Notes under the pieces: model-generated | Told to the model about the DNA's origin: nothing | What the model saw: only the letters and a program-made list of their open reading frames with translations | Databases searched by the model: none | DNA from: a virus | Taxonomy: Duplodnaviria > Heunggongvirae > Uroviricota > Caudoviricetes | Virus record (IMG/VR): IMGVR_UViG_2698536687_000005 | Reading direction: 5' to 3' (one strand) | Length of the DNA: 35,705 nt | Part shown: piece by piece, positions 1 to 33,085 of the stretch | Numbering within the stretch: the first letter of the stretch is position 1 | Layout: the number at the start of each line of letters is the position of its first letter | Position numbers and translations under genes: made by a program

Positions 1-1053
1 TTACGGGGTAATGCCAACCGCTGCCGCCACTTTGTCGCCACTTGGCAGCGTTGCCAGAGGATTGAAACGGAGCGCCGTTTCCAGATGATCCGGTGCCAGA
101 TGTGCGTAACGCATAGTCATTTTTATATCGTGGTGTCCGAGAATTTTTTGTAAGGCCAGAATGTTTCCACCCGACATCATGAAGTGCGCCGCAAACGTAT
201 GGCGCAGAACGTGTGTGAGTTGACCGCGAGGGAGCACGATAGACGTTTTTTCCATCACGGATAAAAATTGAAAATAGCAGTCTGTGAAGAAATTGAACCC
301 ATCAAGCGCCATGATCTCTTCGTAAAGCTCTTTACTGATAGGGATGCTTCTGTTTTTCTTCCCCTTCGTTCTGACAAAGGTAATTCGGTATTTGGTCACC
401 TGTGAGCGAGTAAGATTTACGGCTTCACGCCAGCGTGCGCCTGTGCTTAAGCATATCTTAACTACCAGTGCCAGAATTGGGTCCTGACGTTTGCAATCAG
501 CCAGCAATTCAACAATCTGCTCATGGGTAAGCCATGCCATCTCTTTTTCTGCGATGGTGAATTTTCGCATGTTCTCCAGTGGGTTCGGATACGACCATTC
601 GCCCAGACGGGATAGTTCGCTAAAAACACTACTTAGATAGCTTTGCTCCAGGTTAATGGTGACCGGGCTTGCTCCTTTCTTCCATTTCTCGCTGAAGTAG
701 ATCTCGCCTGTCAGGCGTTTATCTCGATAGTGGGCAAACATTTTAGAGGTGAGATCGGTTGCAAGAGGATTGCCCAGAGCGTCAACCATCAACAGCAATT
801 TGTCATAGACATGCTGCCCAGCTGTCAGAGATTTACCATGTAGTTTGAACCATAGTTCAACCACGTCTTTCAGTGTTCGACGATCCACTGATTCACCCAG
901 CCAGGGCTTTGCTTCGGTTTCTTCCATCGTGTGACGCTCAAAAGCCAGAGCTTCGCCTTTGGTGGCGAATTGTTTACGCACACGACGTCCACTACGTCCG
1001 GCGGGGTAACATTCGCAAAGCCATTTTCCTGTGGTGAGTTTTCGTACTGCCAT
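1..1053 (-). CDS. int: Tyrosine integrase (P2-type)
   Basis: 350-aa ORF; C-terminal catalytic signature 'HVLRHTFA ... GHHDIKMTMRYAHL' (R-H-R-Y); sits at prophage end next to immunity region; stop codon at positions 1-3. Confidence 0.9.
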   Translation of the reverse strand: MAVRKLTTGKWLCECYPAGRSGRRVRKQFATKGEALAFERHTMEETEAKPWLGESVDRRTLKDVVELWFKLHGKSLTAGQHVYDKLLLMVDALGNPLATDLTSKMFAHYRDKRLTGEIYFSEKWKKGASPVTINLEQSYLSSVFSELSRLGEWSYPNPLENMRKFTIAEKEMAWLTHEQIVELLADCKRQDPILALVVKICLSTGARWREAVNLTRSQVTKYRITFVRTKGKKNRSIPISKELYEEIMALDGFNFFTDCYFQFLSVMEKTSIVLPRGQLTHVLRHTFAAHFMMSGGNILALQKILGHHDIKMTMRYAHLAPDHLETALRFNPLATLPSGDKVAAAVGITP

Positions 1054-1058
1054 AAAAA

Positions 1059-1078
1059 AGCCCTCATATCAGAGGGCT
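1059..1078 (-). terminator. Intrinsic terminator-like hairpin immediately upstream of int start
   Basis: 7-bp GC-rich stem AGCCCTC/GAGGGCT with 6-nt loop; on the minus strand it is followed by the T-run at 1054-1059 and then the int ATG; right arm contains the int GAGGG Shine-Dalgarno. Confidence 0.5.
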
Positions 1079-1136
1079 AAATTTAACTGTATATACAACC
1101 AGTAATCAATGTGTGATTACTATGAAACATACATTG

Positions 1137-2813
1137 CTAAGCAACATGCAGTTCATCGTTGGCGGAAGTTGCTGCTTTGCGCTCTTGCTCAATCGCCAGT
1201 GACTCTCTATATTCTTTCGCTTCCGCAAACATTGTCCATTGTGCGTTGATGTTCATATCTTCAATAACAGACTTAATTTCTTTAATATTTACGTTGAAAA
1301 ACTCTTTTCGTGAGTTAATTTTATTGACCTGTTTTTCGTTGAAGACTTTATGCAGATGATTTTCTAATGATGGTGCATCATCACTATAAATCATCGCATG
1401 AACATCGAACGAAAAAGGAACACTAGCATCACCGAGTTCACGAACACGATCAAGTGGTTCAAGGCGGCGTGTCATTCCAATTTTATATACATCTTCGCCA
1501 AATGAGCCAATATTACTAATTATATAAACGTGGCCTGATCTAGTTTGTTGAGCCATAGAAATAGCTCGTTGGTTTTTAGCTTCAGCTTCTTCATATTTTA
1601 ACTGTAGTTCAGCTATTTTTTGCTCTAAAGCTAAGCGTTGTTCTTCATTTGCAAGCATAAGCTCTTTTGTTGCTTTATTTATAGCTTGCTGAATAGCTTT
1701 CTCTTCTTTTTCAGCTTCTTTTATCGCTTTTTCATACTCCCTACGAGCTCTTTCCTCTTCACGAAGTTGTTCTTTAATCCTTCTTTGCTCTTCTTTTTCT
1801 TCGAGCATAATTTCATTAACTGCAACTCCCCATTTTAGCTCGTTGAGTCGAGCTTGAAGATAGATGTCACTTATTTTTGCGGACCTAAAGGCAGAACCAT
1901 TGTAATTTACAAGTTGAAACGCATCTTTTATCTCTTGGGAAAGTTTTCCAAAATTGTTGTGTTTGACTTTTGATAAAATACTGTCAACTCTTCCATTGAA
2001 GGCATCTAAAACAAAGTTGATAGCAGTATTACGCCTGTTTTGTTCAACATAATCACACGAAGCAGCTTTATTAGTTTTTATTAATGATTTTGTTAACTCC
2101 CTGGCTTTTTGTAATTCCTTACCTGCATCTGTAAACTCATAATTTTCTGCCAATTCATCGAGAACGCTACGGTTAGGGATGATCCATTCATCACCATAAC
2201 CTTCAATTTTATTTTTCATTGATTTGGCAACTGCTTCATATTTTTCTGCAAACTCTTTAGCTTCATATGCTGAACCAGCAATCTCTTTTGCTCTTTCTTC
2301 TGCATCGGAAATAATTTTCACTGCATTGTCATTAGCATTTGAGATCAGCTCATTTGCTTTACTATTGGCATTATCAAGACGTTCTTTAGCTTTCAGGCGT
2401 GCATCGCGAGCGTCTTTAGTAATTGCTATAGCTTCGCTATTAGCGTTGCTTATTTTTATCTGAGCTTGATAATTTGCTTCGTTTACTGTCTTAGCAGCCT
2501 TTATTTGGGCTTCTTCTATTTTTTGCCTGGCTATTGAGTCTGCATTTTTTATCTTATTCTCTGCTTCCATCACTGCGCTGTGCAATTCTACGTATTGCCA
2601 TAATGGCGCAGCTCGTCCTTCAAGCTCTGATAGATCTCGTACAGTCTGTGCTAATTCTTCTTGATTTTCTTTCAGTTGGTTGGAAAGGGCTATGTTGTTA
2701 TCTGTCAAGGTATTTATAGCCGCTTTATGTTTTTTGCTTTGCTTAAATAATATTACAGCTAGAATGGGGGTGAGAAATGCTAATAAGAATATAACGATGG
2801 AAAATGAATTCAT
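1137..2813 (-). CDS. Membrane-anchored coiled-coil protein with DUF4041-like region and C-terminal T5orf172/MUG113 (GIY-YIG-like) domain; candidate defence/abortive-infection cargo
   Basis: 558-aa ORF. N-terminal hydrophobic helix (SIVIFLLAFLTPILAVILF), about 300 aa of K/E/A-rich heptad-like sequence, C-terminal 'HVYIISNIGSFGEDVYKIGMTRRLEPLDRVRELG...FSFDVHAMI...LENHLHKVF' matching the T5orf172 signature. AT-rich relative to backbone. AAGGA RBS 8 nt upstream. Confidence 0.75.
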   Translation of the reverse strand: MNSFSIVIFLLAFLTPILAVILFKQSKKHKAAINTLTDNNIALSNQLKENQEELAQTVRDLSELEGRAAPLWQYVELHSAVMEAENKIKNADSIARQKIEEAQIKAAKTVNEANYQAQIKISNANSEAIAITKDARDARLKAKERLDNANSKANELISNANDNAVKIISDAEERAKEIAGSAYEAKEFAEKYEAVAKSMKNKIEGYGDEWIIPNRSVLDELAENYEFTDAGKELQKARELTKSLIKTNKAASCDYVEQNRRNTAINFVLDAFNGRVDSILSKVKHNNFGKLSQEIKDAFQLVNYNGSAFRSAKISDIYLQARLNELKWGVAVNEIMLEEKEEQRRIKEQLREEERARREYEKAIKEAEKEEKAIQQAINKATKELMLANEEQRLALEQKIAELQLKYEEAEAKNQRAISMAQQTRSGHVYIISNIGSFGEDVYKIGMTRRLEPLDRVRELGDASVPFSFDVHAMIYSDDAPSLENHLHKVFNEKQVNKINSRKEFFNVNIKEIKSVIEDMNINAQWTMFAEAKEYRESLAIEQERKAATSANDELHVA

Positions 2814-2833
2814 TTTTAAATCCTTTTACTATA

Positions 2834-3430
2834 TTAATTTGAAACTATTGTACTTCTTATACAAGCAACTACTTCAATATCAGAAAATGCACATTCAAAG
2901 CTATTCTCTGTACTTGTAATTTTAATCATACCTTTTGGAAGCTTTGTGATTTTTCGAATGGAATAGGTTCCGTCGATGTTGATTAACCAGTGCCCATCAA
3001 GTACTTCAGAAAATTTTTGATCACAAATGTATGTGACGAGCCCATCCTGAATAACAATTGGTGATGAAAGATTTGCAGGAAGAAATGATGAATCGAAGAC
3101 ATATGAACCATCTTCAATCATTTTGCCTGCGGTAAGGCGAAACTTGGCAAGCTCTTCTGTAGCTGCTGTCAGCGAGCTTTGCTTAAGGCCTTGCCCGGTG
3201 GTTAACCATTTCAGTGAGGTTCCTGTTTCAAGAGCACATTGGATTATCCAGTCTGCAGGAAACGTATCCCGCAAATACCTGTTCGCCAGAGTGCTTTTTG
3301 ATACTTCCAAGTGATCAGCTAAAGCCTGTCGTGTCGTAAAGCCATAAGCTTCGACTAATCGCTCAATCGCAGCCTTACCACCTTTATTGGGATTTATTTT
3401 GATCTCATTTGGGTACTTTGATGTTGACAT
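2834..3430 (-). CDS. cI: Immunity repressor, phage 186 CI-like (N-terminal HTH, no S24 autoprotease motif seen)
   Basis: 198-aa ORF; N-terminal HTH-like 'FTTRQALADHLEVSKSTLANRY'; no G-x-S-M/Lys dyad; positioned between int-side cargo and apl, opposite orientation to apl. Confidence 0.75.
   Translation of the reverse strand: MSTSKYPNEIKINPNKGGKAAIERLVEAYGFTTRQALADHLEVSKSTLANRYLRDTFPADWIIQCALETGTSLKWLTTGQGLKQSSLTAATEELAKFRLTAGKMIEDGSYVFDSSFLPANLSSPIVIQDGLVTYICDQKFSEVLDGHWLINIDGTYSIRKITKLPKGMIKITSTENSFECAFSDIEVVACIRSTIVSN
3406..3418. repeat. 13-bp direct repeat CATTTGGGTACTT, copy 1 (inside cI N-terminal codons)
   Basis: Exact copy of the motif at 3465-3477; a degenerate third copy CATTTTGGGATAC lies at 3751-3763. 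Confidence 0.5.
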
Positions 3431-3525
3431 ATCTCTTTTGCGATCCTAGTATCAATTTTGTCCCCATTTGGGTACTTGTCACGATTACTACAGGCTCACC
3501 ACAAGCCAATAGGAGATGTTGCATC
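3431..3525. promoter_or_regulatory. Lysis/lysogeny switch region between cI and apl (expected convergent pR/pL)
   Basis: 95-bp intergenic region between oppositely oriented cI and apl; contains one copy of the repeated 13-mer CATTTGGGTACTT (3465-3477) and a TTGACA hexamer at 3424-3429 overlapping the cI start. Confidence 0.5.
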
Positions 3526-3747
3526 ATGACCCCTAACATTTCAATAACTCTGAATACGCCACATGTCACAATTGAGCGTTATAGCGAACTTACTGGTCTT
3601 TCTATCGACACCATCAACGATATGCTGGCTGATGGTCGCATCCCTCGCCATCGCCTTCGGAAAGACAAGAAAAGAGAAAAGGTAATGATCAACCTTGCTG
3701 CTCTTACCGTTGATGCACTTACTGATTGCAATGTTGTATTCAACTAG
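3526..3747 (+). CDS. apl: Apl/Cox-like excisionase and transcriptional regulator
   Basis: 73-aa product from ATG at 3526 with AGGAG RBS at 3511-3515; HTH-like '[26 protein letters not shown]'; first gene of rightward early operon. Confidence 0.7.
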
Positions 3748-3779
3748 TTCCATTTTGGGATACATCAGGGGTGTCGACT

Positions 3780-4289
3780 ATGTTTGATTACCAAGTTTCC
3801 AAACATCCACATTTTGACGAAGCCTGTCGTGCATTCGCACTGCGCCACAACCTGGTGCAACTGGCAGAACGTGCAGGCATGAATGTACAGATTCTGCGGA
3901 ACAAGCTGAACCCAGCTCAACCTCATTTATTAACCGCACCAGAAATCTGGTTGCTTACCGATCTGACTGAAGATTCAACGCTGGTAGATGGCTTTCTGGC
4001 ACAGATTCACTGCCTGCCATGTGTACCGATTAATGAGGTGGCAAAAGAGAAACTGCCGCATTATGTCATGAGTGCAACCGCAGAGATCGGGCGTGTTGCT
4101 GCAGGTGCGGTATCCGGCGATGTAAAAACCAGTGCAGGTCGTCGTGATGCTATCAGCAGCATTAACTCTGTAACACGGCTGATGGCGCTGGCCGCTGTTT
4201 CATTGCAGGCCCGTTTACAGGCTAATCCTGCGATGGCGAGTGCAGTTGATACCGTTACTGGCCTCGGTGCTTCATTCGGTTTGCTGTGA
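3780..4289 (+). CDS. cII: Phage 186 CII-like lysogeny-establishment regulator
   Basis: 169-aa product from ATG at 3780 (the track ORF is N-terminally extended); sequence '[24 protein letters not shown]...' and length match the 186 CII family as recalled. Confidence 0.7.
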
Positions 4290-4296
4290 GGTGCTT

Positions 4297-4497
4297 ATGC
4301 TGACGAAAGAACCATCATTTGCATCGCTGCTGGTAAAACAAAGCCCGGCAATGCACTACGGTCACGGCTGGATCATGGGGGAGGATGGTAAACGCTGGCA
4401 TCCGTGCCGTTCACAGGATGAATTGCTGGCAGAACTATCTACGAAAAAACGGGGGAACAAATGGCTATTGAAGGCGCTGCGGCAACTGTTCCATTAA
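4297..4497 (+). CDS. Small early protein, unknown function (occupies the position of 186 fil)
   Basis: 66-aa product from ATG at 4297 immediately after cII stop; no recognisable motif. Confidence 0.4.
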   Translation: MLTKEPSFASLLVKQSPAMHYGHGWIMGEDGKRWHPCRSQDELLAELSTKKRGNKWLLKALRQLFH

Positions 4498-8595: not shown

Positions 8596-8687
8596 TCACA
8601 CGGGTTAACAATTCGTGCTCTTAATAATACCAGGCATATCAGGCTGATGAACGTAAAAAAACGTTTTACATCAGTAAGATTATTATA

Positions 8688-8707
8688 TACTGTAAATATA
8701 AACAGTG
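8688..8707 (+). promoter_or_regulatory. Consensus LexA (SOS) box TACTGTAAATATAAACAGTG
   Basis: CTGT-N8-ACAG with AT-rich spacer at 8690-8705, about 45 bp upstream of the small ORF starting at 8749. Confidence 0.6.
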
Positions 8708-8748
8708 GTTATATGTACAGTATTGCGTATGGTGTTATAGGAGGAAAG

Positions 8749-8937
8749 ATGCAGGACTATTTTTTGGAGTCTTTGAAGCTCCAGCGCATTGATTTTTTTC
8801 TTAAGCTTGTAGCGGCTAGTGAGTGTAGTGATGAAGAGAAGGGGCTAGCTCTGCAGTGGGTTTCTGAATTGACTGATGAGTTGATGGCGAAAATTCGAAG
8901 CCATGAATACAGTAGGTCGATGGATGTAATCAGTTGA
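8749..8937 (+). CDS. Small SOS-box-associated protein; candidate Tum-like antirepressor or other SOS-induced cargo
   Basis: 62-aa product from ATG at 8749 with AGGAGGA RBS at 8739-8745; AT-rich; downstream of LexA box and upstream of a terminator hairpin. Confidence 0.45.
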   Translation: MQDYFLESLKLQRIDFFLKLVAASECSDEEKGLALQWVSELTDELMAKIRSHEYSRSMDVIS

Positions 8938-8970
8938 GCTTGTTTCGTTAGGACTTGATAAGGGAACCGA

Positions 8971-8996
8971 AAAGGGGCATTAAGCCCCTTTCTCAT
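8971..8996 (+). terminator. Intrinsic terminator hairpin between the small ORF and the convergent lipoprotein gene
   Basis: Stem AAAGGGGC/GCCCCTTT (8971-8978, 8984-8991) with 5-nt loop, followed by T-rich TCTC. Confidence 0.5.
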
Positions 8997-9004
8997 AAGT
9001 TGAT

Positions 9005-9304
9005 TTAGTTGTTACCCAAAGAGCCGGCCATGGCTGCATATTTAATTTCTTCGCTGGGTATTTCAGGATGTAGTTGAATTTGCCTGATGATATAGCCAGG
9101 AACTTCTTCACTCCACAGTTTCGCCGCGTCCTTACAGACCTTATACGCGAAGTCTCTATTCTCAAAGGCATAGGATTTTCCGTATGCATATTGCTGACAG
9201 GCATGAACATAAGCTCCGAAGTCGCCGTCTTTATCTGGCAAAGCACATCCAGCTAAGGCTATGATGATTGCTACTAACGTAAAGGAGAAAGTTATACGTT
9301 TCAT
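9005..9304 (-). CDS. Small lipoprotein, unknown function (cargo)
   Basis: 99 aa; signal peptide with lipobox 'LAGC' (MKRITFSFTLVAIIIALAGC); AT-rich. Confidence 0.65.
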   Translation of the reverse strand: MKRITFSFTLVAIIIALAGCALPDKDGDFGAYVHACQQYAYGKSYAFENRDFAYKVCKDAAKLWSEEVPGYIIRQIQLHPEIPSEEIKYAAMAGSLGNN

Positions 9305-9360
9305 GGTCTCTTTCTAAGCGTTTAGCATTATTTAACTAAGGGGTATCTGCCGTGATTTGG

Positions 9361-9389
9361 TAGTCCCTGATATATATTCTCAGGGACTA
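9361..9389. promoter_or_regulatory. Inverted repeat TAGTCCCTG-N11-CAGGGACTA between the two lipoprotein genes
   Basis: 9-bp perfect arms around AT-rich spacer ATATATATTCT; candidate operator or terminator/promoter element. Confidence 0.4.
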
Positions 9390-9412
9390 TGCTGAAGTAG
9401 CTTTAATTTTGA

Positions 9413-10219
9413 TTATTTAGAAAGGTACTTATCTCTAAGTTGATTCAGTCTGTCAGCATCGCGTTCTGAAAACTCGGCGTCACCATAGATCGATTTCCCA
9501 TCTGCGTCTTCAAGGCCAATGACTGTGACGGTAAATATAGCATCAGCCGGAACTTTAAGTTTTCCCCAATCAGAGTATCTATTAGGGGCTAATTTCCAGT
9601 TGGCTTTCTCACCTGGTTCCAGACCTCCAGAAATTTTATAGTTGAAGACGTCAGAGAACCAAGGGACGCTTCTTCCTGGGCTGGCAATAACTCCTTTGAA
9701 GAATACTCTGGCAACCGCTTTGTCTGTTCCGTTTTCAACGCTAATATCCAGAATTGGCTGATCATTGCCGTAATCCTCTTTCTGGAAATAAAAACGGGAA
9801 CGTTCGACCTTGAAGGCTTTCATTTTTTCCGCAGCCTGTGTTGCAGAGGTTTGTTTGGCTTCCAGTTCTTTTATTTCTTGCAGAGCCTGTTCTTTCTCTC
9901 TCTTCTCACGCTCAAGGCGAATAGTTTGTGCGTAATTTATAACCTCATCACCAGTTTTACCTTCCAACGCTGACTTAATTTTTGTTTCGTAGACGTCCCC
10001 AGAAGACGTTCCAGCCTGCATTAGCTCTCTCATGTTGATTTGGCTAAAGGCAACGACTTTAACTGCATCATCAAACTGAGCTTTTTTATCTGCAGGTAAG
10101 GACTCTCTTACTTTTTGAATGGACTCTTTCATCGACTGATCGCTTGATGCATCGATCTTCGGTTTGTCACAAGCAGTAAGCAGCAGAGCAAAAGCAATTA
10201 CGCCAGTTAATTTCTTCAT
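9413..10219 (-). CDS. Lipoprotein with central coiled-coil and C-terminal domain of unknown function (cargo)
   Basis: 268 aa from ATG at 10219 (track ORF extends to 10291); signal peptide 'MKKLTGVIAFALLLTAC' with lipobox; charged coiled-coil segment 'EREKREKEQALQEIKELEAKQ'. Confidence 0.65.
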   Translation of the reverse strand: MKKLTGVIAFALLLTACDKPKIDASSDQSMKESIQKVRESLPADKKAQFDDAVKVVAFSQINMRELMQAGTSSGDVYETKIKSALEGKTGDEVINYAQTIRLEREKREKEQALQEIKELEAKQTSATQAAEKMKAFKVERSRFYFQKEDYGNDQPILDISVENGTDKAVARVFFKGVIASPGRSVPWFSDVFNYKISGGLEPGEKANWKLAPNRYSDWGKLKVPADAIFTVTVIGLEDADGKSIYGDAEFSERDADRLNQLRDKYLSK

Positions 10220-10247
10220 ATCCCTATCCCAATCGTAAAAAAACAAG

Positions 10248-10268
10248 GCTAATCCTAACAGGATTAGC
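10248..10268. promoter_or_regulatory. Palindrome GCTAATCC-N5-GGATTAGC upstream of the 268-aa lipoprotein gene
   Basis: 8-bp perfect arms, 29-51 bp upstream of start codon at 10219; candidate operator. Confidence 0.4.
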
Positions 10269-10740
10269 GGGCATGACAAACTCATAGCCATATAGGTGTG
10301 CTGTATAAATTAGCGGGATGAGAAAGCCTGCACAGACCCTCATGTTGAAACTTGATTTTAGCTCAAAAGAGCTGACACTAAATAACTGCGCGGAATAATG
10401 CTCCACTTTCGGTTAGCCCTTGGCCCTTGCTGGGTAAGGCGTGGGGCCGTTTTCTTCGCCTGATCCTGCTGTATCTGGCCTACAGTATGTTGTCCTTACG
10501 CGACATGCCACATGTCAGTAAACGGCAGGTGTAGCAGTATTAGACGCAGCTATTTAGTGTGTATTAAGCTGGCTCATATTTATGACTGGTTTCAAGGTTT
10601 GACCGATTTCATGTCATGCATGTCTATGCTGCATGAGTTCGCATGATCGTTTGAGGATCGGTTTGGCTAAGACATGCCAGAACTGGCGGGCTTTTGCTCA
10701 TGTCATGCAGGTGCATGAAAACTACTACATAAAGCGGGCA

Positions 10741-10759
10741 GGCGTGGCGGGGATACGAG
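10741..10759. other. Candidate cos site (P2/186-type cohesive end)
   Basis: GGCGTGGCGGGGATACGAG; first 13 nt match the 186 cohesive-end sequence as recalled (GGCGTGGCGGGGAAAGCAT); lies between gene A side and Q as expected. Confidence 0.45.
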
Positions 10760-10869
10760 CGCGCGCTCATGGTTGAATTAATGAAATTATGGTGTTAAAT
10801 AGGCTAGCTTTTTAAGTCGTGAATATTCAATTTTTCAACTCATTTTTTTCATAGGGAGAAGTAATTGAC

Positions 10870-11568
10870 ATGGTTATGTTAGTGGATGACTGTCCACGAT
10901 GTGGATCACAAAAAATAGCGTTTGATGTTAATGGGCTGAATTGCACTAGGGTTTACAATGCATTGGGCGGGGGTAAAACATACGAGTACGAGGTCTATTG
11001 TGTTTGCCGAGAGTGTCATAAAACGACAATGTTTCTTTGCAGACCTTTAACGAAAAATAAAACTTTAGATGGCTATAATTGGGAAAGTGGAATATTCGGC
11101 TTAAAGGAAGTTGCAGAGGTTGTTAGGCCTATATCACCAGCAGACTTAGCAGTAGAGGAGCCACCAGAGTTCTTACCTGAGCATATCAATAGTGCATATG
11201 AGGAAGGGGCGAAATGTTTGGCTATAGGTTGTTATAATGCAGCAGCAACCATGTTTAGGCTTTGCCTTGATTATGCCACAAAAGGACTTCTTCCTGATGG
11301 GGAGCAAGGGCCTGCGCAAAAAATAAGGAGAAGCCTAGGGTTAAGAATGGAGTGGTTATTTGATAATCATCTACTGCCTGAAGCTTTAAGGGAACTAGCT
11401 GAATGCGTTAAAGATGACGGAAATGATGGAGCGCATGAAGGTATTTTGGATAAAGCTGCTGCTGAGGATCTTGAAGATTTTACCTATCTTTTTTTAGAAC
11501 GGCTTTACACTGAACCTCAACGCCTTATCGAAGCCAAGACAAGGCGTGAACAAAGAAGAAACAAATAA
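10870..11568 (+). CDS. Zn-ribbon + DUF4145 (HEPN-like) protein; candidate single-gene defence/Abi cargo
   Basis: 232 aa; N-terminal 'CPRCGS ... CVCRECH' four-Cys arrangement; C-terminal 'YEEGAKCLAIGCYNAAATMFRLCLDYATK ... NDGAHEG' resembling DUF4145; AT-rich promoter-like upstream region; GGGAGAAG RBS. Confidence 0.6.
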   Translation: MVMLVDDCPRCGSQKIAFDVNGLNCTRVYNALGGGKTYEYEVYCVCRECHKTTMFLCRPLTKNKTLDGYNWESGIFGLKEVAEVVRPISPADLAVEEPPEFLPEHINSAYEEGAKCLAIGCYNAAATMFRLCLDYATKGLLPDGEQGPAQKIRRSLGLRMEWLFDNHLLPEALRELAECVKDDGNDGAHEGILDKAAAEDLEDFTYLFLERLYTEPQRLIEAKTRREQRRNK

Positions 11569-11576
11569 GTTCGGAA

Positions 11577-21330: not shown

Positions 21331-22225
21331 CCTTTCGCAGTTACCTGCGCCGCAGATTGTGGATGTGCCGGACTTTGAGACGCTGCTTGCCGAACGCAAG
21401 GCAGAATTTGTAGCGCTTCATCCGAAAGATGAGCAGGAAGCAGTGATGCGTACGCTGGAACTGGAATCTGAACCCATTACCAAATTGTTGCAGGAGAACG
21501 CTTATCGTGAGTTGCTCCTGCGCCAGCGCATTAACGAAGCCGCGCAGGCGGTGATGGTGGCTTATGCCATAGGGAGCGATCTGGACCAGCTCGCTGCCAA
21601 TTACAACGTGAAACGCCTGACGGTGACGCCTGCTGATAATGACGCTGTGCCACCCGTTGCTGCTGTGATGGAAAGCGATGAAGCGTTACGCCTGCGTGTG
21701 CCTGCGGCTTTTGAAGGGCTTTCGGTTGCGGGGCCAACCGCAGCTTATGAATTTCATGCCCGAAGCGCCGACGGTCGGGTGGCGGATGCCAGTGCAACCA
21801 GCCCGGCACCTGCAGAGGTGGTACTGACTGTCCTTAGCCGCGAAGGCGACGGAACAGCAGAAAAAGACCTGCTGGATGTGGTGGAGAACGCCCTGAACAG
21901 TGAGAACGTCCGCCCGGTGGCTGACCGTCTGACGGTTCGCAGCGCAGAAATCATACCGTACCGCGTGGAAGCCACCATTTTTCTCTATCCGGGGCCGGAA
22001 GCAGAGCCGGTAATGGCAGCGGCAAAAGCCAGCCTGCAGAAGTACATCGCCAGTCAGACGCGTCTTGGTCGGGATATCCGCCGTAGCGCCATCTTTGCTG
22101 CCCTGCATGTTGAGGGTGTTCAACGTGTGGAACTGGCTTCTCCGCTGGCGGATGTGGTCCTGAACAAAACACAGGCGGCATCATGTACGCAGTGGAGCGT
22201 AACAAACGGAGGAACGGATGAATAG
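21317..22225 (+). CDS. J: Baseplate protein J
   Basis: 302 aa from ATG at 21317 (same length as P2 gpJ). Confidence 0.85.
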   Translation: MAVIDLSQLPAPQIVDVPDFETLLAERKAEFVALHPKDEQEAVMRTLELESEPITKLLQENAYRELLLRQRINEAAQAVMVAYAIGSDLDQLAANYNVKRLTVTPADNDAVPPVAAVMESDEALRLRVPAAFEGLSVAGPTAAYEFHARSADGRVADASATSPAPAEVVLTVLSREGDGTAEKDLLDVVENALNSENVRPVADRLTVRSAEIIPYRVEATIFLYPGPEAEPVMAAAKASLQKYIASQTRLGRDIRRSAIFAALHVEGVQRVELASPLADVVLNKTQAASCTQWSVTNGGTDE

Positions 22226-22823
22226 TCTGCTGCCACCGGGTTCAACTTCACTGGAGCGCCGACTGGCGCAGACCTGTAGCGGGATTTCTGATCTGCAGGT
22301 GCCGCTGCGTGACTTGTGGAATCCGGCTGCCTGTCCGGTCAGCTTCCTGCCTTATCTCGCCTGGGCGTTCTCTGTGGATCGCTGGGACGAGGGCTGGACA
22401 GAAAGCGTCAAACGCCAGGTAGTGAAGGATGCTTTTTATATTCATCAGCATAAAGGAACCACCAGTGCCGTGCGGCGGGTGGTGGAACCGTTCGGATTCC
22501 TGATCCGCATTATTGAGTGGTGGCAGACCGGAGAAACACCGGGCACGTTTCGCCTGGATATCGGCGTGCAGGACCAGGGCATCACTGAAGATACCTATCT
22601 GGAACTTGAGCGGCTGATAAGCGATGCCAAACCATGTAGCCGTCACATGATCGGCATGTCCATCAATCTGCAGACCAGCGGTCCGCATTGGGTGGGGGCC
22701 GCCAGCTATCTTGGCGAAGAAATCACGATCTATCCGTATATCAACGAAACAATTATTTCTGGCGGCACCGCGCATGAAGGCGGGGCGGTCCATGTTATTG
22801 ACACAATGAGAGTGAATCCATGA
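22218..22823 (+). CDS. I: Baseplate/tail protein I
   Basis: 201 aa; position. Confidence 0.82.
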   Translation: MNSLLPPGSTSLERRLAQTCSGISDLQVPLRDLWNPAACPVSFLPYLAWAFSVDRWDEGWTESVKRQVVKDAFYIHQHKGTTSAVRRVVEPFGFLIRIIEWWQTGETPGTFRLDIGVQDQGITEDTYLELERLISDAKPCSRHMIGMSINLQTSGPHWVGAASYLGEEITIYPYINETIISGGTAHEGGAVHVIDTMRVNP

Positions 22824-24550
22824 GCACAAAATTTTATACCCTGCTGACGGATATTGGCGCGGCGAAACTTGCCAGCGCCGCCGCACTCGGTGTGCCGTTA
22901 AAAATTACCCATATGGCGGTAGGCGATGGCGGCGGAACATTACCAACGCCGGATGCAAAGCAGACTGCACTGGTAAATGAGAAACGCCGGGCTGCGCTGA
23001 ATATGCTCTATATCGACCCGCAAAACAGCAGCCAGATTATTGCTGAACAGGTGATCCCTGAAAACGAGGGTGGTTGGTGGATACGTGAAGTGGGCCTGTT
23101 TGATGAATCCGGGGCATTAATTGCCGTGGGCAACTGCCCGGAAAGCTATAAGCCGCAACTGGCTGAAGGCAGCGGGCGCACCCAGACAGTGCGCATGGTG
23201 CTGATTACCAGCAGCACGGACAATATCACCCTGAAAATCGACCCTGCTGTCGTGCTGGCAACCCGTCATTATGTAGATCAACAAATAGAAATTCATGAGC
23301 AATCGCGCCGCCATCCTTCTGCGTCTTTGACAGAAAAGGGATTTGTACGTCTGTATAGCGGTGTGGAAAGCAATGATGAAACAGTCGCTGCAACGCCAAA
23401 AGCAGTGAAAATAGCGATGGATAATGCCAGCGCCAGACTGGCAAAAGACCGCAATGGTTCTGATATTCCCAATCCGGCACTGTTTGTTCAGAATCTGGGA
23501 TTGAAAACGACTGTTGATAAAGCTGCATCAGCGATTCAGCCAGGAGATTATGGAATTGGCCTGGCTTATCTGAAAACCATGGGAACCAAATCGCAATTTT
23601 TTGCTTATGGTACAGCTGTCGGCTATCCAGAAGTGCCAACACATGGTGCTGGTTTCCAGGCCTGTTACAACGACAATCGACGTGCACAGATTTATGTCGC
23701 TAATGATGGCAAGATGTACTGTCGATTCAGCATGTTATCGAAAATTGCCGATGATGAAACACCGTGGAATCAGGTGTTCACCAGTGCACATTATCCAGAA
23801 GCATCAGTGAGTGTTAAAGGAATGGTGCAACTGGGGAACGATGTAAACAGCGTGTCAGAAAATGTTGCGGCGACATTGAAAGCGGTAAAAATTGCGATGG
23901 ACAACGCCAGCGCGAGACTGGCAAAGGACCGCAATGGTGCTGATATTCCTGACCCGACTTTGTTTATTCAGAATTTGGGACTTAAACCGACGGTTGATAA
24001 GGCTGAAAGTGCTCTGCAACAGGGAGCATACGGAATTGGTGGTAAAAATAACTACGAAATGGGGGAGGTTTCACAGTTTCTTGCATATTCAGGTAATGCA
24101 GATGAAGTGCCATCGAATGGTGCAGGTTTTCAGGCTGCGTATAACAAGAACAGACGCGCGCAGATTTTCATCACCGGAGCAGGGGAAATGTATCACCGTT
24201 TCAGCGGCTCTGATACGGTTAAAGACAGTACAACGCTATGGCGCCGGGGTGTTTGTGAAGATGAATTTTCATTTGGCAGCAATTATCACCGAATAACTGG
24301 CGGTGTGCTGAAGCAGTTTTTTAACAGTTATTTTTCCGGGGAAACTGGTGTGGTGAATAAAAATTATCAGGTGAATTTTCCGACACCATTTGCCCGTCAG
24401 TGCTGGTACGTGATCCCTGTTTTCCGTTCGGCACACGGTGGGAGTGTTGAGGGGGTTGCCATTACAACTATTACTGCAACTGGTTTTACTCTGAGCATCA
24501 CCGGGGATAACGGTGGATGGAATATTGGGTTTATTGCGGAGGGGGTCTGA
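22820..24550 (+). CDS. H: Tail fibre protein (P2 gpH family) with internally duplicated C-terminal module
   Basis: 576 aa; N-terminus 'MSTKFYTLLTDIGAAKLASAAALG...' typical of P2 gpH; two tandem homologous segments of about 120 aa in the distal part. Confidence 0.88.
   Translation: MSTKFYTLLTDIGAAKLASAAALGVPLKITHMAVGDGGGTLPTPDAKQTALVNEKRRAALNMLYIDPQNSSQIIAEQVIPENEGGWWIREVGLFDESGALIAVGNCPESYKPQLAEGSGRTQTVRMVLITSSTDNITLKIDPAVVLATRHYVDQQIEIHEQSRRHPSASLTEKGFVRLYSGVESNDETVAATPKAVKIAMDNASARLAKDRNGSDIPNPALFVQNLGLKTTVDKAASAIQPGDYGIGLAYLKTMGTKSQFFAYGTAVGYPEVPTHGAGFQACYNDNRRAQIYVANDGKMYCRFSMLSKIADDETPWNQVFTSAHYPEASVSVKGMVQLGNDVNSVSENVAATLKAVKIAMDNASARLAKDRNGADIPDPTLFIQNLGLKPTVDKAESALQQGAYGIGGKNNYEMGEVSQFLAYSGNADEVPSNGAGFQAAYNKNRRAQIFITGAGEMYHRFSGSDTVKDSTTLWRRGVCEDEFSFGSNYHRITGGVLKQFFNSYFSGETGVVNKNYQVNFPTPFARQCWYVIPVFRSAHGGSVEGVAITTITATGFTLSITGDNGGWNIGFIAEGV
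23373..24205 (+). repeat. Tandem duplication inside gene H (two homologous ~350-bp units)
   Basis: Unit 1 about 23373-23730 ('NDETVAATPKAVKIAMDNASARLAKDRNGSDIP...GAGFQACYNDNRRAQIYV') and unit 2 about 23853-24205 ('SENVAATLKAVKIAMDNASARLAKDRNGADIP...GAGFQAAYNKNRRAQIFI'); divergent copies. Confidence 0.8.
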
Positions 24551-32862: not shown

Positions 32863-32930
32863 TTTGCCGCCAAAGATAAGTAAAGTAGTTTCTAACTTAT
32901 TGATTATGGAATGGAAGAATAGCAGGCAAC

Positions 32931-32973
32931 AAAAAACCCATCAACCTTGAACCGAAATGGCGGGGTTGATGGG
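32931..32973 (-). terminator. Intrinsic terminator on minus strand downstream of ybjL
   Basis: 10-bp stem CCCATCAACC/GGTTGATGGG (32937-32946, 32964-32973) preceded on plus strand by AAAAAA (a U-tract on the minus-strand transcript). Confidence 0.55.
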
Positions 32974-33085
32974 CTCCACAAAATGGGGACATCAAAGAAA
33001 AGCAGTGGCACTAATTAAGACTGATGCCCTGCGGAAAAGTTCTGCGGTTGTGCAAAAAAATTTCATTTTCAGGGCAACTTCAGTT

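Follow-up and report, generated by a model that had tools for sequence, protein, structure and literature searches.

A probable divergent member of the SNIPE (PD-lambda-1) family carried as cargo between cI and int of a 186-type prophage

SNIPE, or PD-lambda-1 (E. coli ECOR26 RCP76574.1, 500 aa; Vassallo et al. 2022, PMC9519451; Saxton et al. 2026, PMC13190303), is a phage defence encoded by a single gene on a prophage. Its defence is direct: infected cells survived and grew at high multiplicity of infection, unlike those with the abortive control PD-lambda-3, and the protein cut DNA during injection and contacted the tape-measure protein (PMC13190303). The GIY-YIG domain was not sequence-specific, and SNIPE without its membrane helix cleaved the host chromosome and was toxic; a DNA-binding role was shown for the DUF4041 domain, and the N-terminal region was reported to associate with ManYZ (PMC13190303). 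[quoted passage not shown] According to the SNIPE authors, the N-terminal region is highly variable among homologues and is not family-defining.

Prophage intervals with variable contents have been described as defence hotspots between cI and int of P2-related K139-like Vibrio phages (Rousset et al. 2022, PMC9122126) and from "integrase to primase" in P2-like prophages (NAR 2026, PMC13586616); their alternative contents include known defence systems. A search for SNIPE or PD-lambda-1 at the cI–int position found neither term in the P2-related hotspot literature examined.

We analysed a stretch of 35,705 nucleotides (IMG/VR record IMGVR_UViG_2698536687_000005; Caudoviricetes), hereafter the window, containing a P2/186-like E. 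coli prophage inserted between rybB and rcdA. Rfam, run across the full window, matched RybB alone, located outside the prophage. As listed in Table 1, a large gene was found between cI and int, and we consider it highly probable that its product is a divergent, separate-subfamily member of SNIPE (PD-lambda-1), that is, a membrane-anchored defence nuclease carried as cargo in a 186-like cI–int slot. The setting differs from the two published hotspots in that the prophages are enterobacterial, of the 186 type and located between rybB and rcdA, and in that the cargo and a cI allele form one block. An earlier note on this DNA had placed a 558-aa AT-rich gene here, on the same strand as cI and int and 20 bp from the cI stop; its coordinates were right and the layout was confirmed on the sequence. 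The gene had a G+C content of 0.367, compared with 0.399 in cI, 0.486 in int and 0.515 across the prophage, and the stop codon of the gene was 83 nt from the ATG of int.

Table 1. Positions in the window of the SNIPE-like gene, its predicted parts and its surroundings
Feature	Position	Strand	Description
int, tyrosine integrase gene	1..1053	minus	350 aa; Int_N and Phage_integrase; opposite side of slot from cI
Element upstream of int	1054..1136	minus	fixed int-side edge of cargo slot
SNIPE-like gene	1137..2813	minus	558-aa ORF, ATG start; PADLOC PD-Lambda-1, Pfam and PHROG matches
GIY-YIG (T5orf172/MUG113) nuclease domain, codons 427–528	1230..1535	minus	Pfam
Charged linker helix, codons 316–423	1545..1868	minus	helices 316–387 and 390–423 in model; aligns with SNIPE linker
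Globular DUF4041 domain, codons 217–314	1872..2165	minus	Pfam; model secondary structure
Helical stalk, Ala/Asn/Lys-rich, codons 24–203	2205..2744	minus	single continuous helix 3–203 in AlphaFold2 model
Predicted single-pass membrane helix, codons 4–23	2745..2804	minus	hydropathy, AlphaFold2 helix, conservation
cI-to-gene spacer	2814..2833	minus	exactly 20 nt; Shine-Dalgarno AAAGGA at 2821–2826
cI repressor gene (186 type)	2834..3430	minus	198 aa; Pfam Phage_CI_repr and Phage_CI_C
Candidate pR	3424–3452	plus	face to face with candidate pL; consensus scan alone
Candidate pL, GTGACA-16-CAAAAT	3455..3482	minus	faces cI; consensus scan alone

A PADLOC check on the locus, as proposed in the earlier note, returned the PD-Lambda-1 defence profiles (PDLC03976, E = 5.3e-120, aa 106–550 against positions 36–481 of 491 in the profile; PDLC03977, E = 2.1e-116, nearly the full profile length covered). 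The protein also matched PHROG 1847 (E = 3e-132), and the NCBI pipeline names it "SNIPE associated domain-containing protein". A 500-aa E. coli protein was used as a stand-in for SNIPE, since it has every one of the nine residues that the SNIPE paper names. BLASTP against this stand-in gave 49% identity over the C-terminal 293 aa (aa 265–555, E = 2e-76) and no similarity N-terminal of aa 265. In the aligned part E484 corresponded to the catalytic E414 of SNIPE and K327 stood at the position of W257. A multiple alignment of homologues showed a 12-residue gap in DUF4041 (columns 418–429), at a place where a conserved "TEWTVxGSxxEG" is present in the SNIPE clade. Family membership, domains and conservation of the catalytic residues were shown by these sequence comparisons; nuclease activity, membrane topology, action at the injection stage and target phages are predictions by homology.

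The domains expected by the earlier note passed their curated Pfam cut-offs: DUF4041 (PF13250; aa 267–322, 46.6 bits, cut-off 27) and, at the C terminus, the nuclease-like T5orf172 (aa 427–520, 61.8 bits, cut-off 20) and MUG113 (aa 443–520, 70.7 bits, cut-off 22.3). One N-terminal membrane helix had also been expected, and was predicted from a Kyte-Doolittle 19-residue maximum of 2.86 at aa 4–23; with the basic cluster KQSKKHK that follows, it fits a predicted topology of N-terminus out and C-terminus in. For the helix itself, compared across 11 species, dS was saturated and dN was 0.23–0.35. The ~300 aa of coiled coil in the same account were roughly right as a total but proved to be two helices (aa 3–203 and 316–423) split by the globular DUF4041 domain. 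The claim that the architecture was unusual had to be dropped, since the family, its mechanism and the cI–int hotspot in P2-related phages were already published.

The stalk, an N-terminal "adaptor" region, gave a weak DivIVA/Wag31-like match far under the cut-off. A tandem-repeat search of the gene DNA found nothing, indicating that the Ala/Asn-rich stalk was not a recent DNA repeat. The segment aa 231–330 was the only net-basic one (17 K/R against 10 D/E, net +7), all others being net acidic, and this is consistent with the DNA-binding role shown for DUF4041 in SNIPE. The nuclease domain contained GHVYI (427–431), YKIGMT (443–448), R449, R450, R456 and E484 (codon 1362–1364), and in an alignment of 37 homologues GHVY (427–430), KIGMTRRL (K444–L451), R456, H472, E484, N497, N500 and RKEFF were invariant. 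An AlphaFold2 model of moderate quality (pLDDT 72.8, pTM 0.35) placed the membrane helix and stalk first, then the globular domain, the linker helix and the beta/alpha nuclease domain, an order also given in the SNIPE paper (PMC13190303). Foldseek of the PDB with the whole chain gave no match at E ≤ 0.001, and a PDB sequence search gave none at E ≤ 1. Local Foldseek matches to Slx1, a GIY-YIG nuclease, were weak (probability 0.6–0.7, ~75 residues), and were used as weak support only.

The predicted protein thus shares with SNIPE an N-terminal membrane helix, a helical stalk, DUF4041, a charged linker helix and a C-terminal GIY-YIG domain with its catalytic Glu, and it is likewise encoded by a single prophage-borne gene. 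It differs in being 58 aa longer, with DUF4041 preceded by ~70 additional residues and a C-terminal tail that is shorter, in its unrelated N-terminal 264 aa and gapped DUF4041, and in that its defence activity is predicted. Because these 264 aa are unlike the ManYZ-associating region of SNIPE, the target range and host partner of SNIPE could not be transferred to it. The copy encoding the stand-in belongs to a lambdoid prophage, in which it follows ren and neighbours nin-region genes, whereas the window gene is in a P2/186-like cI–int slot.

In phage 186, cI (22433–23011) and int (21423–22433) overlap by one base with no gene between them, in agreement with the earlier note, according to which the 186 backbone is not known to have a large gene here. 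Comparison of related E. coli prophages also revealed cargo variation: bounded by the cI stop and, at the int end, by a conserved int-upstream element of ~85 nt, the interval held the SNIPE-like gene, HEC-01, a KAP NTPase, hypothetical proteins of 329, 314 or 349 aa, or a 63-aa ORF alone. The 329-, 314- and 349-aa genes had no Pfam or PADLOC match. With constant flanks and variable content including known defence systems, the cI–int interval was shown, at the level of sequence, to be a cargo slot. Genes with DUF2971 and Panacea domains were rejected as contents of this slot, being located between int and the attachment site, a different slot. Among P2-family prophages, old, tin and fun(Z) of P2 are defence genes, non-essential cargo expressed in lysogens; they occupy other slots (gpA to portal; within tail genes) and encode unrelated proteins with unrelated mechanisms.

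The int-upstream element was common to five cargo variants, and a pairing-preserving variant of it was found in two more. In the window, CAATGTATG and CATACATTG form a 9-bp inverted repeat within this element, a terminator-like hairpin (AGCCCTC-N6-GAGGGCT followed by T6, 1078–1059) abuts the int ATG, and the predicted fold had an energy of −29 kcal/mol (z = −4.6).

The SNIPE-like gene was present in 165 of ~1,330 E. coli genomes matching this region and was not universal at this position. The cI allele (at least 90% identity) was found in ~163 E. coli genomes, and in 7 of the 11 species loci the gene was immediately preceded by cI at 81–100% identity, indicating that the allele and the gene travel together as one block. 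The same int–gene–cI block also occurs in two isolated phages, KP12 and vB_EcoM-813R9. The long ORF, the Shine-Dalgarno sequence, the membrane helix and a GTAAAAGGATTT motif upstream of the ATG were kept in 11 enterobacterial species; dS was saturated and dN was 0.07–0.35, indicating purifying selection across these species. A 477-aa form starting at Met82 (some records, P0050) was rejected on this conservation and selection.

The neighbours of the gene in the window are cI and int; in 3 of the 11 species it lies outside the cI–int context, among unrelated genes, and in another three it is followed by an additional gene of ~1 kb. No neighbour was constant across the 11 species, which fits a single-gene system without an obligate partner, and the three loci outside the cI–int context show that the gene does not depend on the candidate pL. 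A scan of the cI-to-gene spacer found no terminator-like or promoter-like site, and from the layout co-transcription with cI is plausible. The arrangement of the candidate pL and pR resembles the annotated pR/pL of phage 186; expression of the gene from pL is suggested by geometry and the consensus scan alone.

[quoted passage not shown] At the site of injection, the basic DUF4041 would bind DNA as well as the tape-measure complex of the infecting phage, and the GIY-YIG domain, with E484 as catalytic Glu, would cut the phage genome on entry. Tethering would hold the nuclease off the host chromosome and the resident prophage, so that the cell would survive. The gene most likely rides on the repressor transcript, in which case the product would be made in every lysogen.

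Many prophage-borne nuclease defences work by abortive infection, and the earlier note had suggested a prophage-encoded defence or abortive-infection effector. Defence was supported by the PD-Lambda-1 match (E = 5e-120) and the cargo slot. In an abortive system, infection would free or activate the nuclease, host and phage DNA would be destroyed and the infected cell would die, protecting its neighbours, and the unspecific GIY-YIG domain of the homologue and the host-chromosome cleavage and toxicity of SNIPE lacking its membrane helix (PMC13190303) would be in line with this. However, the window protein retains the membrane anchor that prevents self-cleavage in SNIPE, and the characterised homologue defends directly, full-length SNIPE letting infected cells survive at high multiplicity of infection (PMC13190303); we regard abortive infection as unlikely. 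Another reading refines the preferred one and does not contradict it: a SNIPE-family protein whose specificity or partner is other than lambda/ManYZ, by way of the stalk and the altered DUF4041. The unrelated N-terminal 264 aa, the 12-residue gap and K327 in place of W257, the residue whose W257R change strengthened defence against Bas14, point to such a difference, but target ranges may overlap broadly because wild-type SNIPE is already weakly ManYZ-independent against most siphoviruses, and we give this reading an even chance.

A SNIPE-family nuclease was also weighed against two readings that take the protein for something other than a defence. T5orf172 and GIY-YIG domains are known in free-standing phage homing endonucleases, and the gene is AT-rich against the backbone, as it might be were it a selfish T5orf172-type endonuclease self-inserted between cI and int and of no use to the lysogen. 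The membrane helix, the 200-aa stalk and DUF4041 argue against this, Pfam found no NUMOD, IENR1 or HTH DNA-binding family in the protein, and the same slot carries unrelated non-endonuclease cargo; moreover, the gene, which is under purifying selection, diverged across genera in step with one cI allele. A homing endonuclease was rejected on architecture and co-divergence with cI, and is very improbable. The records of KP12 and vB_EcoM-813R9 use the name "chromosome segregation ATPase" and JGI "V-type ATPase subunit H", which would make the protein a structural or segregation factor, and weak matches of its coiled coil to models of SMC and DivIVA point the same way. These matches were confined to coiled-coil sequence of biased composition and were far under the cut-offs (SMC model TIGR02169, 15.5 bits against 729.4, coiled coil only; DivIVA_Wag31, 26 bits against 260), and we rejected SMC, DivIVA and V-ATPase as names for the protein. 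No ATPase family was found by Pfam, so the segregation-ATPase reading was refuted at the sequence level, and the probability left to a structural or segregation role is negligible.

The family, its mechanism, its carriage by prophages and the cI–int hotspot in P2-related phages were known, and standard defence profiles recognise the gene; the SNIPE-like gene is real but largely ordinary, and there is little new in it. The analysis does correct misleading records, namely the name "chromosome segregation ATPase" and the 477-aa form without the membrane helix, and documents a well-delimited cargo slot, some of whose contents are without annotation, in common prophages of E. coli, Klebsiella and Citrobacter. 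As a natural SNIPE variant with a different N-terminus and DUF4041 surface, the protein could be used for testing the proposal of the SNIPE authors that these set phage specificity. A broader reading in three parts is offered tentatively, at somewhat less than even confidence. The 558-aa clade would be a functionally distinct branch of the SNIPE family, in which the unrelated stalk and shortened DUF4041 aim the nuclease at an entry route or phage group other than lambda/ManYZ. Being inherited with one cI allele, the gene would form with it a two-layer immunity cassette, the repressor acting against the phage's own kind and the injection-stage nuclease against others, and the 329-, 314- and 349-aa genes of the same slot may be undescribed defence systems.

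The 558-aa ORF lies between cI and int of a P2/186-like prophage, within which the window begins. Its ATG is 20 nt from the cI stop, with an AAAGGA Shine-Dalgarno sequence within the gap, and its stop is 83 nt from the int ATG. G+C content was 0.367 for the ORF, 0.399 for cI, 0.486 for int and 0.515 for the prophage. ORF calling and the G+C count confirmed the coordinates, strand, 20-nt gap and AT-richness reported in the earlier note. The Pfam search proposed there detected DUF4041, T5orf172 and MUG113, and its N-terminal transmembrane helix was recovered as a strongly hydrophobic stretch (aa 4–23) followed directly by KQSKKHK. The gene is real and had been read correctly.

Coordinates of the gene, its flanks, protein segments and alternative cargo of the cI-int slot (L-numbers, compared loci)
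Feature	Position	Strand	Remarks
int	window 1–1053	minus	350 aa; integrase by Pfam
Conserved element, ~85 nt	window 1054–1136	minus	directly upstream of int, ending at int ATG
558-aa ORF	window 1137–2813	minus	ORF call
cI	window 2834–3430	minus	198 aa; 186-type repressor by Pfam
DUF4041	aa 267–322		above Pfam cut-off
T5orf172	aa 427–520		above Pfam cut-off
MUG113	aa 443–520		above Pfam cut-off
Single helix	aa 3–203		AlphaFold2 model
Small globular domain	aa 217–314		AlphaFold2 model
Second long helix	aa 316–423		AlphaFold2 model
Beta/alpha domain, then terminal helix	aa 427–528 (domain)		AlphaFold2 model
HEC-01 (AAA_21 ATPase with DUF4276)			slot cargo, sister prophage
KAP-family NTPase			slot cargo, sister prophage
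Hypothetical protein, 329 aa	L005:5100–6089		slot cargo, sister prophage
Hypothetical protein, 314 aa	L007:5066–6010		slot cargo, sister prophage
63-aa ORF only			slot cargo, sister prophage
Hypothetical protein, 349 aa	L003:1851–2900		slot cargo, related Klebsiella phage 4LV2017
286-aa gene	L012:5789–6649		in or next to slot, sister prophage

A 477-aa version, beginning at Met82 and missing the membrane helix, is given in some records, including protein cluster P0050; this form was ruled out by N-terminal conservation across 11 enterobacterial species. The long ORF, Shine-Dalgarno sequence and hydrophobic N terminus were retained in all 11, and dN was 0.23–0.35 in codons 1–81 and 0.07–0.13 in the remainder, low against saturated synonymous sites, which argues that the 558-aa form is the real one and that the membrane helix belongs to the protein. 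Public names were inconsistent (records OM835953 and ON470620; cluster P0050): ‘chromosome segregation ATPase’, ‘vacuolar-type H+-ATPase subunit H’, ‘DUF4041 domain-containing protein’ and ‘SNIPE associated domain-containing protein’ were all in use.

The protein matched both PADLOC PD-Lambda-1 profiles over nearly their whole length (E = 5e-120 and 2e-116) and PHROG 1847 (E = 3e-132), and we are highly confident that it belongs to the SNIPE (PD-lambda-1) family. Functional screening of E. coli fosmids led to the discovery of PD-lambda-1 (Vassallo et al. 2022, PMC9519451), whose founding gene is ECOR26 RCP76574.1 (500 aa; DUF4041 at 197–252, T5orf172 at 357–448); it was later renamed SNIPE and characterised as a single-pass inner-membrane protein (Saxton et al., Nature 2026, PMC13190303). 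An exhaustive search gave 3,379 family clusters (50% identity) at E ≤ 1e-3 and 1,411 at E ≤ 1e-30. The 558-aa form was common in Escherichia, Citrobacter, Salmonella, Klebsiella, Enterobacter and relatives (82–99% identity).

An E. coli 500-aa protein (L001:5984–7486) was taken as a stand-in for SNIPE because it contains every one of the nine residues that the SNIPE paper names. Identity with the window protein was 49% over aa 265–555 (E = 2e-76), and pairwise alignment found no similarity upstream of aa 265. The alignment offset of 70 residues equates SNIPE's catalytic E414 with E484, which was invariant among 37 aligned homologues, as were GHVY (427–430), K444–L451 (KIGMTRRL), R456, H472, N497, N500 and R502–F506 (RKEFF). 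The conserved ‘TEWTVxGSxxEG’ segment in DUF4041 of the SNIPE clade is replaced in the window clade by a 12-residue gap. SNIPE W257, at which W257R strengthened defence against phage Bas14 (PMC13190303), corresponds to a lysine (K327). The stand-in gene lies in a lambdoid prophage (L001:5984–9393 region) after ren, adjoining nin-region genes and on the opposite strand to its neighbours; next comes a 515-aa HD-domain gene that may be another cargo or defence gene.

The AlphaFold2 model (pLDDT 72.8) had the layout published for SNIPE. The sole net-basic segment was residues 231–330. A sequence search of the PDB found no relative, and Foldseek against the PDB matched only the GIY-YIG nuclease Slx1, weakly and locally. 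The stalk's weak DivIVA-like match is of a kind already listed in Supplementary Table 3 of the SNIPE paper, which includes homologues whose N-terminal regions bear a membrane helix and are similar to DivIVA or to ATP synthase subunit b (PMC13190303).

In phage 186 the cI and int genes share one base, so no gene lies between them in that backbone, in agreement with the earlier note. Nor is the 558-aa gene universal at this slot: sister prophages at the same chromosomal site, beside rcdA, hold other cargo, and the int-to-cII distance was ~2.9 to 4.7 kb in an evenly spaced sample. The 329-, 314-, 349- and 286-aa genes had no Pfam or PADLOC match; given the other occupants of the slot, they are candidate novel defence genes. 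A cI-int defence hotspot has been noted in P2-related Vibrio phages (PMC9122126), and a 2026 survey placed 8% of P2-like prophage defence systems between integrase and primase (PMC13586616).

Of 5,426 complete E. coli genomes, 165 contained the whole of window block 1–4300 (~1,330 matched parts); two isolated phages, Klebsiella KP12 and Escherichia vB_EcoM-813R9, also had the entire block. The cI allele (at least 90% identity) occurred in ~163 E. coli genomes, compared with 165 for the 558-aa gene; in seven of the 11 species this cI allele (81–100% identity) lay directly upstream of the gene and int downstream. Klebsiella phages shared ~97% identity in int (1–1065) and on the cII side (3480–4300) but not 1066–3479. 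Taken together, the 558-aa gene travels and diverges with cI as a single block. Window cI (198 aa; 192 aa in phage 186) is shorter than the cI genes annotated for other immunity types in this prophage family (292–312 aa; L004:4137–5030, L005:4151–5089, L007:4176–5054), a difference that may stem either from an additional domain or from how the start codon was chosen.

Scanning the sequence from cI to the 558-aa gene revealed neither a terminator-like nor a promoter-like site, which, with the 20-nt gap and Shine-Dalgarno sequence, suggests that the gene is carried on the repressor transcript. Upstream of cI were face-to-face promoter-like sites, as in 186. This account of expression is drawn wholly from sequence. 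In the element directly before int, an inverted repeat of 9 bp (CAATGTATG/CATACATTG) is accompanied by a terminator-like hairpin (1078–1059) with a T6 run abutting the int ATG, and the hairpin is conserved whatever the cargo; GAGGG in the hairpin's 3′ arm is likely the int Shine-Dalgarno sequence. The element folded at −29 kcal/mol (z = −4.6), and was kept in five cargo variants; two others have a form of it that preserves the pairing. It is the int-side edge of the cargo slot and may restrict how much int is expressed from the lysogenic transcript.

Just past the prophage's ogr end lie the gene for the small RNA RybB (32928–33006, minus strand, 105 bits) and then ybjL, and rcdA adjoins int in matching genomes; rybB and rcdA thus flank the prophage, whose attachment site may share sequence with the end of rybB. 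A second cargo slot, lying from int to the attachment site, was occupied in one sister prophage by a DUF2971 gene and in another by a Panacea-domain gene and its partner (L090:586–1338, L091:241–1469); it matches a reported ‘integrase to att’ hotspot (PMC13586616). The classical P2 hotspot that separates the replication endonuclease gene from the portal gene (8596–11576) held three ORFs, of 292 aa (DUF6694, E = 4e-22), 232 aa (DUF4145, E = 4.5e-7; weak PADLOC PD-T7-4 match, E = 1.2e-6) and 96 aa (no match). Over 1–4300 the sequence of strain L725 is identical to that of the window, but its genes in this hotspot are different.

The SNIPE mechanism, carried over by homology, is the best-supported account of how the 558-aa protein would work. 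The earlier note had also offered an abortive-infection effector; this is disfavoured, since defence by the characterised homologue SNIPE is direct and infected cells survive (PMC13190303). Readings as a homing endonuclease or, after one of the public names, a ‘segregation ATPase’ are likewise disfavoured. In SNIPE, DUF4041 contacts siphovirus tape-measure proteins, ManYZ associates, for lambda, with an N-terminal region highly variable among homologues, and the nuclease attacks the host chromosome when the membrane helix is removed (PMC13190303). We are moderately confident that an injection-stage, non-abortive mechanism applies to the window protein. Confidence as to which phages it would target is low, because its N-terminal region and part of DUF4041 differ from those of SNIPE. 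The family of this gene is now well understood and its type of location already described; what is new is the window protein as an additional SNIPE-family member with a predicted defence role.
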